Assembly (NCBI GenBank): GCA_035699665.1
Contig: DASSPJ010000006.1
Coordinates: forward strand, 1 to 60,790
Source: Candidatus Limnocylindria bacterium
GTDB taxonomy: Bacteria; Chloroflexota; Limnocylindria; QHBO01
Direction of reading: 5' to 3'
Length of the DNA: 60,790 nt
Each line of letters starts with the position of its first letter. The first letter of the stretch is position 1. Made by a program: the position numbers and the translations under genes. The notes under the pieces were generated by a model. It saw only the letters and a list, made by a program, of their open reading frames with translations, was not told the origin of the DNA and did no database searches. This document shows positions 52,140 through 55,689 of this stretch, one piece after another.

Positions 52140-53189
52140 ATGACCGCGACCGCCCCGCCGCGCACCATGCGCGCGCTCGCCAAGACGCGTCCCGAGCCGG
52201 GCGCGGAGCTGGTCGAACGCCCGGTCCCGGTCCCGGGCCCGGGCGACGTGCTGCTGCGCATGGAGGCCGCCTCGATCTGCGGCACCGACCTGCACCTGTT
52301 CAGCTGGGACGCCTGGGCGCAGGACGTCATGCGGCCGCCGACGATCCTCGGCCACGAGCTGGCGGGGCGCGTGGTCGGCACCGGCAGCGGCGTCACGCGG
52401 GTCCGCGAGGGCGACCTGGTCGGCGTCGAGAGCCACCTCGTCGACTGGACCTGTTCGGTCTGCCGGCGGGGTGACCCGCACCTGTGCCGCAACCTGCGCG
52501 TGATCGGGGCGCACGTCGACGGCGGATTCGCCGAGTACGTCGTCGTTCCCGAGGAGAACGCCATCGAGAGCAACGGCCTCGACCCCGCGGTCGTCGCTCT
52601 CCAGGAGCCGATGGGCAACGCGGTGCACGCCGCCTTCGTCGAGCCGATCGAGGGGAGGAGCGTGCTCGTCACCGGATGCGGCCCGATCGGGCTGTGCTCG
52701 GTGGGGATCGCCCGCGCTGCCGGCGCATCGGTCGTGATCGCCACCGATACCGAGCCGTATCGCCTGGAGCTGGCCCGCACCATGGGGGCACACCTCGCGC
52801 TCGACGCCGCCGACCCCGCCACGCCGGGGCGCGTTCGCGAGGCGACCGGCGGGGACGGGGTCGAGGTGGTGCTCGAGATGAGCGGCGCGGCGCCGGCCCT
52901 TGCGCAGGCGCTCGACGTCATCGACCGCGGCGGGCGCATCAGCCTGCTCGGCATCTTCGGCGAACCGCCGACGGTCGACCTGTCCGACCTGGTGATCATG
53001 AAGGGCGTGCGTCTGCACGGGATCTTCGGCCGGCGCATGTACGAGACCTGGGAGCAGACCCAGGCGCTCCTTCGCGGCGGGCTCGACGTGAGCCCCATCA
53101 TCACCCATCGACTTCCACTCGAGCGCTGGCCCGAGGCGTTCGACCAGATCGCCTCGCGTCACGCCGGCAAGGTCGTGCTCCTGCCGTAG
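52140..53189 (+). CDS. tdh: L-threonine 3-dehydrogenase (zinc-dependent MDR family)
   Basis: Motifs: MEAASICGTDLHLF, GHELAGRVV, the structural-zinc Cys cluster CSVCRRGDPHLC, and GCGPIGL. kbl lies downstream. Confidence 0.85.
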   Translation: MTATAPPRTMRALAKTRPEPGAELVERPVPVPGPGDVLLRMEAASICGTDLHLFSWDAWAQDVMRPPTILGHELAGRVVGTGSGVTRVREGDLVGVESHLVDWTCSVCRRGDPHLCRNLRVIGAHVDGGFAEYVVVPEENAIESNGLDPAVVALQEPMGNAVHAAFVEPIEGRSVLVTGCGPIGLCSVGIARAAGASVVIATDTEPYRLELARTMGAHLALDAADPATPGRVREATGGDGVEVVLEMSGAAPALAQALDVIDRGGRISLLGIFGEPPTVDLSDLVIMKGVRLHGIFGRRMYETWEQTQALLRGGLDVSPIITHRLPLERWPEAFDQIASRHAGKVVLLP

Positions 53190-53218
53190 GGGTTCCGCCG
53201 TGCCGGGGTGAATCAACA

Positions 53219-53430
53219 CTCAGGTCGTGAGGCCTATCGGGGCGCGCCGGGCTCCTGCCGGCGGCCAAGTCTCACCAGCTGAGAGCTACACACGCGCCCG
53301 GTCCTTGTGAGCGCCTACCTCTCACCATCCGAGAGTTGCAAGACAGGGCGAGCCCCTCCGCTGGGATAAGCCTCACCAGCCGAGAGGTCGAGCACCCGGT
53401 GAAGCCGCCACGCCCTCGATAAGCGCCCGA
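53219..53430 (+). repeat. left array: four phased hairpin repeats, cores at 53219, 53271, 53321, 53372
   Basis: The cores are CTCAGGTCGTGAGG, CTCACCAGCTGAGAG, CTCACCATCCGAGAG and CTCACCAGCCGAGAG. Spacing is 52/50/51 nt, and every core has an A at -4. Confidence 0.8.
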
Positions 53431-53467
53431 TGAGTTGCCGGTAAGGCCCGCCGTCCATCATCGGAGC

Positions 53468-54274
53468 ATGAACTTCGTGCCGATGGGCCGTGTGTTGCGG
53501 ATGCTTCGCCTGCGGCGGAACTGGACGCAGGGTGCAGTGGCGGATCGTGCGCGCGTGTCGGCGGCCACGGTCGGTCGTCATGAAAACGGCCGCGTCGGAA
53601 GCTTCGATGCGCTCGAGCGTCACGCCGCCGTGTTCAGCCTGCGGGTGGAGGTGCGCCTGACCGGACGCGCTGGTGAGCTCGCGCGGATCGGTGACGAGGA
53701 GCACGCCGCCATCGTGGAGACCGTCGCAGCGACGCTCCGCGCCGCGGGGTTTGCGGTCGAGCCAGAGGTGAGCTTCAACCAGTGGGGCGAGCGTGGGCGA
53801 ATCGACCTGCTGGCCTACCACCCGGACACCGGCACGCTGGTCATCGTCGAGGTCAAGACGCTGCTCGTCGACCTGCAGGACCTCTTTGGCCGCCTCGACA
53901 CGAAGGTGCGACTCGCCGGAATGGTCGCGGAGCGTCTCGGTTGGACGGCTCGCCGCAGGGTGACGCTGCTGGTCGTGGCGGACACGTCGCACAACCGCCA
54001 CATCGTCCGCCGACACCCCGTCCTGTTCAGCGCGTTCGAGTCGCGCGATCTTCGTGGTGTTCCGCTGGCCGAGGACGGCGCCAGGCTGCTGAGATGGATC
54101 ACGCACGAGCGGGCCTCGCGGCCGCCCTGGCTCGCCGGGCGGCAGCGGATCCGACGCCGCCGAAGGGCCGCGGACGTACCACGCCCCTCCGAGCGGCGCC
54201 AGCTCTCACCTCGTGAGGCCAATCCCCCGGACCGACCGGCTGACCCGCAGCAACTCTCACCGGATGGGGGTTGA
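53468..54274 (+). CDS. XRE-type HTH fused to PD-(D/E)xK nuclease-like domain, Arg-rich tail
   Basis: The HTH reads LRMLRLRRNWTQGAVADRARVSAATVGRHENG. The nuclease-like core reads EEHAAIVE ... GERGRIDLLAY ... LVIVEVKT. The first 40 codons are about 25% A/T at the third position, against about 5% in tdh. The start could also be the TTG at 53435 or the ATG at 53483. Confidence 0.65.
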   Translation: MNFVPMGRVLRMLRLRRNWTQGAVADRARVSAATVGRHENGRVGSFDALERHAAVFSLRVEVRLTGRAGELARIGDEEHAAIVETVAATLRAAGFAVEPEVSFNQWGERGRIDLLAYHPDTGTLVIVEVKTLLVDLQDLFGRLDTKVRLAGMVAERLGWTARRRVTLLVVADTSHNRHIVRRHPVLFSAFESRDLRGVPLAEDGARLLRWITHERASRPPWLAGRQRIRRRRRAADVPRPSERRQLSPREANPPDRPADPQQLSPDGG

Positions 54275-54408
54275 CCAGCGCGCCGCGGGACGGCGAGCGG
54301 TCAGCGCTCACCTGCTGAGAGTTGACAACGCTCCGCTCATCGTGCGCCGCGATACGCCTCACCTGGTGAGCGGTGCGCGGACCAGGAGAACTCCGGCTGC
54401 TGCCCGCT
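54205..54408 (+). repeat. right array: four phased hairpin repeats, cores at 54205, 54256, 54307, 54358
   Basis: The cores are CTCACCTCGTGAGG, CTCACCGGATGGGGG, CTCACCTGCTGAGAG and CTCACCTGGTGAG. Spacing is exactly 51 nt. The first two units overlap the CDS tail. Confidence 0.8.
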
Positions 54409-54461
54409 ACGCCCCGGCCCTGGGCGCGCGACGGGCGGGCATTGCTACCCGGGGCCGCTCC

Positions 54462-54467
54462 TATACT
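54462..54467 (+). promoter_or_regulatory. -10 element TATACT, 7 nt upstream of the kbl ATG
   Basis: CCTATACTCGACCCG-ATG has the same geometry as the tdh promoter. Confidence 0.55.
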
Positions 54468-54474
54468 CGACCCG

Positions 54475-55689
54475 ATGACCGACGCCACCGCGCGTACGCG
54501 CAACCCGCTCGCCTTCCTGGACGCCACGCTCGACGACCTGCGGGCGCGCGGCCTCTACCGGCGGCTGCGCGTGGTCGAGAGCGAGCAGGCGAGCCGCTGC
54601 GTCATCGACGGCCGCGAGGTGATCACCCTCAGCTCGAACAACTACCTGGGGCTCACCACCCATCCACGCCTGAAGGCGGCGGCGATCGAGGCGGTTGAGC
54701 GATTCGGGGCCGGCAGCGGAGCCGTGCGCACCATCGCCGGCACGATGCGTCTCCACGAGCAGCTGGAAGCGCGGCTCGCCGGCTTCAAGCACGTCGAGGC
54801 GGTGCTCACCTTCCAGTCCGGGTTCACCTGCAACACCGGCGTGATCCCGATCCTGGCGCCCGGTGGTGCGGTGATCGTCTCCGACGCCCTGAACCACGCC
54901 AGCATCATCGACGGCATCCGCCTCACCAAGGCCGAGCGCAAGATCTTCCCGCACGCCGACATGGAGGCGCTGCGGAGCGCCCTGGCCGAGGTGCGCGCGG
55001 CGCCGGGCGGCGCGGAGCGGACCATCCTGGTGATCACCGACGGCGTCTTCAGCATGGACGGCGACATTGCCCGGCTTCCCGAGATCGTGGAGGCGGCCGA
55101 GGAGCACGACGCGATCGTCTACGTCGACGACGCCCACGCGTCCGGGGTGCTGGGTCGCAACGGGCGCGGGAGCGTCGACCATTTCGACCTTCACGGCCGC
55201 GTCCACGTGCAGGTCGGGACGCTGTCCAAGGCGATCGGCGTGCTGGGCGGCTACGTCGCCGGGCCGGCGAGCCTGCGCGCGGTGCTCGAGCACCAGGGAC
55301 GCCCCTTCCTCTTCTCGACCTCGCACCCGCCGGCCGTGGCCGCGGCCTGCCTCGCCGCGATCGACGTGCTCGAGCAAGAGCCGGAGCTGATCGAGCGGCT
55401 GTGGACCAACGCGCGCCACTTCAAGGCGGGGCTGGCACGGCTCGGGTTCGACACCGGCGCGTCCGAGACGCCGATCACGCCCGTCATCGTCGGCGCCGGC
55501 GCGCTGGCCCACAGGCTGAGCGACCGCCTCTTCGAAGAGGGCGTCTTCGCCATGGGGATCGGCTTCCCGACCGTCCCGGAGGAGAAGAGCCGGGTGCGCA
55601 CCATCGTGACCGCGGAGCACACCATCGCGGAGCTCGATGCCTGCCTGGCGGCGTTCGAGAAGGTCGGCCGCGAACTGGCCATCATCTGA
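54475..55689 (+). CDS. kbl: glycine C-acetyltransferase (2-amino-3-ketobutyrate CoA ligase)
   Basis: It is an alpha-oxoamine synthase fold ([20 protein letters not shown]-Lys context GTLSKA). It is paired with tdh. Confidence 0.85.

Follow-up and report, generated by a model that had tools for sequence, protein, structure and literature searches.

The tdh–kbl locus and its inserted cassette

The window analysed in this work, a stretch of 60,790 bp, is contig C6 of a 2.21-Mb Candidatus Limnocylindria genome that comprises 183 contigs and has a G+C content of 72% (G000; C-numbers designate contigs of this genome and L-numbers loci in its relatives). It carries tdh (52140–53189), which encodes L-threonine 3-dehydrogenase (NCBIfam 401 bits, cut-off 380), and kbl (54475–55689), which encodes glycine C-acetyltransferase (NCBIfam 488 bits, cut-off 460). 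As the initial annotation proposed, this pair, otherwise contiguous (the two genes overlap as ATGA in relatives), is interrupted by one gene. The 1,285-bp gap contains a single convincing open reading frame (ORF), 53468–54274 on the + strand, which encodes a protein of 268 amino acids (P0001) joining an XRE-type helix–turn–helix (HTH) domain to a predicted PD-(D/E)xK nuclease domain. The gene, the palindrome arrays that bracket it and the promoter elements next to them form an insertion, called here the cassette. The features are the following.

53186–54474, + strand: cassette of 1,289 bp, inserted with respect to the ATGA-overlapped tdh–kbl junction of relatives
52940–53185, + strand: imported 3′ end of tdh (co-conversion tract), from a chi-square breakpoint and partition trees; left limit approximate
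53211–53392, + strand: left array of four 29-bp units starting at 53211, 53263, 53313 and 53364, with cores CTCAGGTCGTGAG, CTCACCAGCTGAG, CTCACCATCCGAG and CTCACCAGCCGAG
53417–53445, + strand: three direct repeats with an 11-bp period, CGATAAG (53417), CGATGAG (53428) and CGGTAAG (53439)
53456–53461, + strand: CATCAT, candidate −10 element read from the sequence, 6 nt before the ATG (leaderless-type start)
53468–54274, + strand: gene of the XRE HTH–PD-(D/E)xK protein P0001, 268 aa, from profiles, alignment, model and Foldseek
53483–53635, + strand: HTH domain (aa 6–56), Pfam HTH_31
53669–53983, + strand: predicted nuclease core (aa ~68–172)
53804–53806, 53849–53851 and 53855–53857, + strand: predicted catalytic residues D113, E128 and K130, from a 50-member alignment
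54197–54378, + strand: right array of four 29-bp units starting at 54197, 54248, 54299 and 54350, with cores CTCACCTCGTGAG, CTCACCGGATGGG, CTCACCTGCTGAG and CTCACCTGGTGAG
54462–54467, + strand: TATACT, −10 element that precedes the kbl ATG (54475) by 7 nt

The cassette is thus read, from left to right, as the tdh stop codon, four phased sites, a probable GATAAG promoter/operator, the nuclease gene, four phased sites and a leaderless-type kbl promoter. No tRNA gene was found between 48000 and 60790, in agreement with the absence of a tRNA attachment site noted previously.

P0001 is an XRE HTH protein with a predicted nuclease domain

The HTH domain of P0001 matches Pfam HTH_31 well above its cut-off (40.4 bits versus 27, E=3.7e-10, aa 6–56), as do all 50 aligned members of the family. 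A profile search of the PDB matched it to DdrO, HigA2, the 434 repressor and SinR, and Foldseek matched the same part of the structural model to HipB, HigA2, C.BclI and C.AhdI; HipB- and HigA-type antitoxin HTHs are weak matches of P0001. Over aa 77–148 only sub-threshold Pfam matches were obtained, all from the PD-(D/E)xK clan (MmcB-like, UPF0102/YraN, YhcG_C, HSDR_N_2 and PDDEXK_4). UPF0102/YraN (PF02021) scores 13.7 bits on P0001 for a gathering cut-off of 23.6, and it is weakly matched by 25 of the 50 family members (best E=0.0039); YraN/UPF0102 is a clan relative of P0001, which is not a member of that family. More generally, no PADLOC, PHROG, Pfam or NCBIfam family reaches its cut-off on the nuclease part, and no HUH or Y1 transposase domain was matched in P0001. 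Assignment to a known defence or phage family was rejected, as PADLOC gives only weak matches to the HTH and phage profiles match nothing but the HTH.

Eleven residues are invariant in the 50 members, down to 33% identity: D76, H79, E100, G107, R109, G110, D113, E128, K130, R148 and W159. Among them, D113...E128-x-K130 has the form of the classical catalytic motif, as expected for the D, E and K residues that the initial annotation had singled out. The AlphaFold model built from the alignment (predicted local distance difference test, pLDDT, 85.8) was used instead of a single-sequence model, which was useless (pLDDT 45). It shows a five-helix HTH followed by a long helix (aa 68–92) and a restriction-like nuclease sheet (strands at aa 96–105, 108–118 and 123–130). 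The closest Foldseek match of this second part is the restriction-like endonuclease domain of the R2 retrotransposon (8iby_C, 2.9e-5), followed by AF1548 (5.7e-3), XisH (9.4e-3) and 3ijm (2e-2). The nuclease domain is accordingly modelled as a PD-(D/E)xK fold, with the alpha/beta core predicted for restriction-endonuclease-like proteins. The fusion had originally been read from four peptides, the HTH stretch LRMLRLRRNWTQ, GERGRIDLLAY, TLVIVEVKT and EEHAAIVE; all are present in P0001, and the HTH_31 match, the weak clan matches, the model and its structural neighbours bear the fusion out.

P0001 shares the core fold and the D...ExK motif with YraN/UPF0102, MmcB-like proteins, Hjc and the R2 domain. 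It differs from all of them in that no nuclease model reaches its cut-off and in two features specific to the family, the N-terminal XRE HTH and a C-terminal WLAGRQRVRR motif. The latter, W-[LV]-AGRQR-[VI]-RR, is conserved at aa ~221–232, and the conserved part of the protein closes with it (WLAGRQRIRR, aa ~232, 54163). The tail beyond is variable and modelled with low confidence, and its residues simply come from units one and two of the right array read as codons (e.g. QLSPREA). The dN/dS ratio (non-synonymous over synonymous substitution rates) among seven orthologous copies is 0.13–0.37, hence P0001 is maintained by purifying selection. Phage proteins of the XRE and of the PD-(D/E)xK type are present in the viral library; a BFVD entry, a 256-aa ‘HTH_XRE domain’ protein of an uncultured Caudovirales phage (A0A6J5P0W0), aligns with the P0001 model over 246 columns (E=5.6e-6) and may share the two-domain HTH–nuclease architecture.

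Phased palindrome arrays and control elements around the gene

On either side of the gene lie four copies of a 29-bp palindrome with the core CTCACCnGGTGAG (4+4). These arrays make up most of the non-coding flanks and were left unmentioned in the initial annotation. Units of the left array (cores at 53219, 53271, 53321 and 53372; position weight matrix (PWM) scores of 23–30 bits) are separated by 52, 50 and 51 bp, and those of the right array (cores at 54205, 54256, 54307 and 54358) follow an exact 51-bp period. The pattern CTCACCn4GAG matches the window eight times for 1.2 expected: six matches are array cores, one lies elsewhere in the 60.8 kb, and a seventh match near the gene is the reverse strand of one of these cores. 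Refined on seven orthologous loci, the PWM consensus is a 29-bp near-palindrome, approximately GATAAC-TCTCACC-n3-GGTGAGA-GTTATC. Periodicity was measured with PWM and lag scans, as an exact 6-mer chain search gave only noise.

The arrangement is conserved in the orthologous loci, with 4+4 units in the window, L103, L048 and L049, 4+6 in L104 and 2–3+3 in L040. All 35 spacings measured in the seven loci are either 50–52 bp (27) or 60–62 bp (8), two classes that differ by one helical turn. In the DNA alignment of the window with L103 and L104, the cores and their register are conserved and the ~30-bp spacers cannot be aligned. The right array of L104 has six units, of which three are near-identical, and the two extra ones are near-identical to their neighbour, hence the number of units varies by 51-bp steps; the three near-identical units suggest a very recent tandem duplication. 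The left cassette end of L104 (L104:137–210) also contains GTCGCTCG-like units in a short tandem stretch, which is absent from the window. An RNA element was rejected, as Rfam gave no match and substitutions within units preserve the sequence rather than base pairing. Conservation of cores and spacing, preservation of sequence over pairing and the negative Rfam result thus make it most likely that the units are protein-binding sites, predicted to lie on one face of the DNA.

Between the left array and the gene lie three GATAAG-type repeats, which are conserved in the three-way alignment and are found directly upstream of the start in 7/7 G000 paralogues and in homologues elsewhere; they are probably the operator/promoter region of the nuclease gene. 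A canonical sigma-70 scan upstream of this gene gave no match. CATCAT, with CAT-AT conserved in L103 and L104, is a candidate −10 element. On the other side of the gene, the initial annotation had placed a −10 element of kbl itself in the right flank, and conservation supports it: GCTCCTATACTCG before kbl is conserved in L103 and L104, TATACTCG (the kbl −10 region) is conserved in these same 75–77% relatives, TACACT, TATCCT or CATAAT occurs at the same distance in L040, L048, L049 and L050, and TAnnnT is at equal distance before kbl in all filled loci. The TATACT element replaces the translational coupling of kbl that was lost through the insertion.

Filled and empty alleles of the tdh–kbl junction

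The tdh stop and kbl start codons overlap as ATGA in 11 relatives, namely 7/7 same-genus genomes and G010, G011, G014 and G015, and are ~60 bp apart in G012. The junction reads ...CTCCTGCC|ATGACCGA... in these relatives, and in the window ...CTCCTGCC is followed by G TAG ... CCCG and then by ATGACCGAC, which defines the insert as 53186–54474. The insert supplies the tdh stop codon (TAG, 53187–53189), and the length of tdh is thereby kept. No target-site duplication was seen at the junction.

None of the 69 other species genomes sampled in the family, including 7/7 of the genus, carries the nuclease gene at tdh–kbl. Among these, 57 genomes besides the relatives named above have a gap of −1 to 104 bp (51 genomes) or an insert of 172–568 bp (five genomes), or, in G008 (L230), a different insert of 1.5 kb, whose long antisense ORF has no relation to the nuclease. 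The tdh–kbl junction is a hot spot. Several junctions (G046 L247, G084 L248 and G079 L268) contain 170–570-bp inserts that end in a GATAAT-like −10 element before kbl, and the junction of G072 (L274) contains a 250-bp gene-less repeat with TTCCCAGC...GCTGGGAA palindromes resembling those of the L040 cassette.

Homologues of 54–77% identity are present at the same site and with the same architecture in six other lineages (L040, L048, L049, L050, L103 and L104), and homologues of 52% identity or less sit at other sites. The cassette is therefore an old tenant of the site. The initial annotation had named residence of the gene between tdh and kbl across a broad clade, a sign of an ancient resident, as a finding that would speak against its claim. 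Such residence is half borne out: the six lineages speak for it, and the 69 genomes that lack the gene against it. Every insert of the seven filled tdh–kbl loci contains a single gene, with no methyltransferase or toxin gene inside. One of these loci, L050 (DATHTR010000059.1), is labelled Candidatus Angelobacter sp. (Acidobacteriota); its tdh and kbl are 82% and 85% identical to those of the window, with the cassette at the same site, and the contig probably stems from Limnocylindria and was misassigned to this metagenome-assembled genome (MAG) during binning.

Entry of the cassette by homologous recombination

The tdh gene of the window is a mosaic. Over its first 800 nt it is mostly closest to its own genus (about 72–94% identity in a sliding window), whereas its last ~250 nt are only 64–69% identical to the same genus versus 80–89% to the cassette-bearing loci L040 and L050. 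In a tree of the 5′ part, the window falls inside its own genus (support 100/99) and a clade of filled loci is rejected (approximately unbiased test, p-AU 0.0004); for the last 250 nt, the tree unites it with L040 and L050 (97/95) and the own-genus grouping is rejected (p-AU 0.0012). Because the breakpoint used for these trees was chosen by eye, a maximum chi-square test with permutation was run. It placed the breakpoint at alignment column ~799, with donor-like sites at 6/57 positions on the left and 26/30 on the right, a contrast reached in 0/5000 permutations (p<1/5000). The mosaic therefore indicates that homologous recombination brought in the cassette along with ~250 nt of donor tdh, on one side only. 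To judge from these phylogenetic signals, the cassette is shown to be of lateral origin, acquired from a cassette-bearing relative through recombination in the flanking gene.

A foreign origin had been proposed in the initial annotation from codon composition. The lateral origin stands, on the empty sites and the tdh tract, but the compositional argument does not. At third codon positions, the G+C content of the nuclease gene is 0.84, against 0.93 in tdh and 0.95 in kbl; the mean over the coding sequences of the genome is 0.90 (sd 0.044). The codon-usage score of the nuclease gene is at the 17th percentile of the genome ORFs. Composition is only mildly atypical and was rejected as a proof of foreign origin, since both measures are within the host range. 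The means of mobility, previously left blank, is now narrowed to entry by homologous recombination in tdh, with two four-unit arrays as structured ends.

The nuclease family in Candidatus Limnocylindria

Relatives of P0001 were found only in MAGs of the Chloroflexota class Ca. Limnocylindria, and a family profile search retrieved 634 clusters (50% identity) at E<=1e-30. They are currently annotated only as ‘XRE transcriptional regulator’, and full-text literature searches of limited coverage returned no description of the family or of its architecture. There are 0–9 matches per genome in 40 relatives and 0–7 within the genus, several with in-frame stops. G000 itself has seven paralogues in 2.2 Mb, which are only 34–42% identical. 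Other paralogue cassettes are shown to be cleanly present or absent from one genome of the genus to the next: the 936-bp C44 cassette is missing from 5/5 same-genus genomes, which have 3–36 bp instead, and G007 has the C37 cassette where G006 has a gap of 25 bp.

Periodic arrays were detected in 31% of 244 flanks at 140 family loci, compared with 5% in gene-internal controls (threshold set at the 95th percentile). The commonest period is 50–51 bp, and periods of 36–37 and 61–62 bp were also found; the cluster at 36–37 bp led us to reject a helical phasing universal to the whole family. A two-gene version with a methyltransferase or toxin was seen at none of the 140 loci, where neighbours were not annotated systematically. 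One paralogue, C139:2374–3051 (L006, C139:2266–3170), has an in-frame TGA and is probably a pseudogene; its flanks contain pairs of CTCACCnGGTGAG-type palindromes 20 bp apart, and such doublets also occur at C143, C178, C56 and C68.

Gene-less arrays elsewhere in the genome

A scan of G000 with the unit PWM gave 39 sites, compared with 7–11 in shuffled sequences, nearly all of them in eight arrays. Two of these are the C6 arrays; the others have four units (C4, C61 and C63), three or four (C127), five (C162) or two (C168). The spacing is 51 bp in 13/22 pairs and otherwise 50, 52, 61–62, 40 or 102 bp. The C162, C63, C61 and C4 arrays are absent from the orthologous sites in every same-genus genome tested, and the C127 site is variable among them. 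The C63 array, too, is placed within an ATGA overlap, and the gene downstream of it starts at a new TTG that the array brings. At C162, the units agree at 85% across their full 51-bp length, which indicates recent tandem growth. Array spacers are unrelated between loci, and in short-word BLAST searches the flanks of the paralogues share only short palindrome cores with the genome.

Two units at 51 bp occur 30 times in G000 (control 4); the counts of the seven same-genus genomes, which do not have this nuclease subfamily, are 1–6 and equal those of the control. Within the genus, gene-less arrays of this motif are found only in the genome that has the nuclease. The pattern is enriched again in G017, G013 and G011, which all have related nucleases. 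In G017, the nuclease gene is flanked 3+3 by another palindrome, GGCTCCn5GGAGCC, which recurs in many gene-less arrays of that genome. This co-occurrence links the gene-less arrays to the nuclease, whichever of the two may move the other. Former presence of a nuclease gene inside the C162 array was rejected: none is at the site in 30 genomes and the site is hypervariable. The C162 gap (C162:11398–11656, and L124–L146 in relatives) lies upstream of a small phenylacetate-pathway-like gene and varies in length from ~0 to 365 bp in the family; the start is directly preceded by a conserved GGTACGCT element, and in L140 a methyltransferase-like gene is inserted.

A homing-like reading of the cassette

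We read 53186–54474 as a self-contained, selfish and homing-like nuclease cassette that spreads by recombination and whose arrays are the protein's own binding sites, a reading to which we give an even chance. P0001 would bind the 29-bp palindromes as dimers, four dimers per array, with the sites on one face of the helix, and the array-bound protein would repress its own expression and mark the cassette. The nuclease would cut DNA that has no cassette, within the 3′ end of tdh or close to it, and repair from a cassette-bearing copy would then copy the cassette in, as is the case for free-standing homing genes of phage T4. A one-sided tract such as that in tdh is the mark of double-strand-break repair known from the free-standing homing endonucleases of T4 (PMC2988022), and it agrees with cleavage inside the adjacent gene and not where the cassette is inserted. 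Since the cassette restores a stop codon and a downstream promoter, its cost to the host would be low and its persistence possible.

Free-standing homing endonuclease genes, the seg and mob genes, are known in T4-like phages (PMC2988022, PMC2790892); their cleavage sites are in a neighbouring gene and they spread by double-strand-break repair (PMC2988022). The cassette resembles them in being a single nuclease gene between genes conserved among relatives, with a presence/absence polymorphism, in being transferred with flanking DNA (one-sided here, ~250 nt of tdh) and in having to handle the expression of a neighbouring gene. It differs from them in its nuclease, PD-(D/E)xK with an XRE HTH instead of GIY-YIG or HNH, in its host, a bacterial chromosome instead of a phage, and in the two phased palindrome arrays around the gene, with gene-less arrays elsewhere in the genome. 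By analogy, the cassette nuclease would cleave the empty allele. The recognized homing families are LAGLIDADG, GIY-YIG, HNH, His-Cys box, PD-(D/E)xK (I-Ssp6803I) and EDxHD, the PD-(D/E)xK fold being used by a few homing enzymes; profile searches found no sequence relation between characterized homing enzymes and P0001.

Several observations weigh against this homing-like reading. Cleavage, DNA binding and the mode of movement of the cassette are all inferred from sequence, and we know of no described homing gene with flanking arrays of sites. Empty tdh–kbl alleles contain no unit-like site (best PWM score 5.6 bits or less, within background); the array unit was therefore rejected as the homing target, which, if there is one, is not simply an array site. 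There is no breakpoint or co-conversion on the kbl side (maximum chi-square p=0.49), and recombination between relatives could have imported the insert without help from the nuclease. Synonymous divergence (dS) of the nuclease gene within the window/L103/L104 clade (0.32–0.53, with 0.53 for window–L103) is similar to that of its flanks (0.34–0.37), hence inheritance in this clade has been vertical. The tdh–kbl gap is hypervariable in the family, with small inserts and another gene in G008, and a hot spot of recombination may therefore account for some of the pattern. Finally, array spacers are unrelated between loci, and the largest palindrome families of G000 have no partner gene nearby.

It is possible, if doubtful, that the cassette stands for a new class of bacterial selfish element, an HTH–nuclease with phased four-unit arrays that homes into intergenic junctions (here ATGA overlaps). 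With the same reserve, such an element might repair the expression of its neighbours, through the stop codon and the leaderless promoter, and seed gene-less arrays elsewhere. If so, it would combine the behaviours of homing endonucleases and of the repeat systems discussed below, by a different chemistry. Work on free-standing homing nucleases has dealt extensively with phages and hardly with bacterial chromosomes, and this system is compact and testable: it consists of one protein of 268 aa with a defined site of 29 bp, and both filled and empty alleles exist in nature. It could reveal the way in which operon junctions are invaded by a nuclease gene without harm, and could explain the abundant phased intergenic repeats of Ca. 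Limnocylindria, an uncultivated class of soil and freshwater. As the flanks of the gene would directly display the recognition sites, a sequence-specific HTH–nuclease of this kind would moreover be a useful source of new specificities.

Alternative explanations

The gene-less arrays call for comparison with the partnership of repetitive extragenic palindromes (REP, REPIN) with the REP-associated tyrosine transposase (RAYT), to our knowledge essentially the only known partnership between a repeat and an enzyme. In a system of this type, the arrays would be what spreads, and the HTH–nuclease a single-copy helper flanked by its own repeats; acting in trans, it would nick or cut at or near palindromes, and arrays would be seeded elsewhere, duplicated in 51-bp steps and maintained. 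We consider this, the main rival, rather unlikely. The likeness to REP-RAYT is a single-copy gene with its own palindromes on both sides and dispersed in other intergenic gaps, several kinds of gene and repeat per genome, and largely vertical inheritance at fixed sites. The explanation also draws on about six gene-less arrays beyond the gene flanks, most of four units, on the excess and 51-bp spacing of their sites, on the missing C162, C63, C61 and C4 arrays in same-genus genomes, on the two-unit counts that fall to 1–6 where the nuclease subfamily is lacking, on G017, which repeats the pattern with its own palindrome, and on the tandem growth in C162 and L104. Yet the enzyme is not a Y1/HUH transposase, and a PD-(D/E)xK nuclease alone is unable to join DNA strands. 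The repeats are phased arrays (usually four units, 51 bp, unrelated spacers) instead of REP doublets, and there are only about eight per genome. Spacers without similarity between loci imply that the arrays are not copies of one master element, 30 genomes have no nuclease homologue at the C162 site, which is hypervariable in any case, and the largest palindrome families (GTGCGTn3ACGCAC with 34 copies, and others) adjoin no paralogue. The co-occurrence is moreover correlative and comes mainly from two genomes.

Other repeat systems were rejected. An insertion sequence or miniature inverted-repeat transposable element does not account for arrays in direct orientation with no terminal inverted repeats and no target-site duplication, nor for paralogues only 34–42% identical with flanks devoid of long genome matches. 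A CRISPR array (clustered regularly interspaced short palindromic repeats; Cas genes were not searched for) does not account for degenerate palindromic repeats with ~13–20 conserved nt, about four units and a 51/61-bp spacing.

P0001 could also be an ordinary accessory protein, an autoregulated XRE-type DNA-binding protein acting as a regulator or as a defence-type or repair nuclease; the arrays would then act as multipartite operators, looping the DNA and insulating the transcription of tdh and kbl, and patchiness would result from passive gain and loss at a recombination-prone gap. This is unlikely. In its favour, the closest matches of the HTH, in sequence and fold, are phage repressors (434/lambda cI) and other repressors and restriction–modification (R-M) controllers, DdrO, HigA2, SinR, C.BclI and C.AhdI among them, and the sites are palindromic, operator-sized, on both sides of the gene and helically phased, the 51- or 61-bp phasing being typical of cooperative repressor binding. 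GATAAG repeats at the promoter of every paralogue, purifying selection, vertical inheritance in the window/L103/L104 clade and the variability of the tdh–kbl gap in many lineages point in the same direction. In contrast with phage repressors and C proteins, however, the HTH is fused to a conserved nuclease domain, eight sites extend over 2 × 180 bp, and the cassette is an insertion that moves between genomes. A pure regulator would have no need of catalytic residues that are invariant across a family of 634 clusters, and no known defence family was matched (PADLOC, weak HTH matches only). The genes beside the gene-less arrays (threonine, phenylacetate, homogentisate, 2-oxoacid oxidoreductase and exonuclease III, read by eye from translations) have no common function, which argues against a regulon, and seven divergent paralogues in a 2.2-Mb genome, with 0–7 matches within one genus, are not what an ordinary accessory gene would lead one to expect.

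A remnant of an R-M or toxin–antitoxin system, namely a fusion of a controller-like HTH with a restriction endonuclease whose partner gene is gone, is very improbable: the HTH does resemble C.BclI and C.AhdI, and weakly HipB- and HigA-type antitoxins, and the fold resembles restriction endonucleases, but none of the seven single-ORF cassettes contains a methyltransferase or toxin gene, and the single-gene architecture is conserved over dS>1 with a dN/dS of about 0.2–0.3. An intact type II R-M system with a C protein was likewise rejected, as the seven tdh–kbl loci have a single gene and no cognate methyltransferase gene.

Other palindrome families of the genome

A pairing of one paralogue with each palindrome family of G000 was rejected, as GTGCGTn3ACGCAC, TCAGCCn6GGCTGA and the AT-rich palindrome CGTATATACnGTATATACG adjoin no paralogue. 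GTGCGTn3ACGCAC, often followed by GAACnG, is a second and larger repeat family, with 34 perfect copies for 0.8 expected (e.g. C160:11909–12700, C142:2181–2480 and C111:8959–9190), partly in arrays with spacings of 41–72 bp. CGTATATACnGTATATACG has 14 copies in this 72% G+C genome (e.g. C5:2668, C5:3284, C63:532 and C114:8228), and these sites look like the operator of a regulon.

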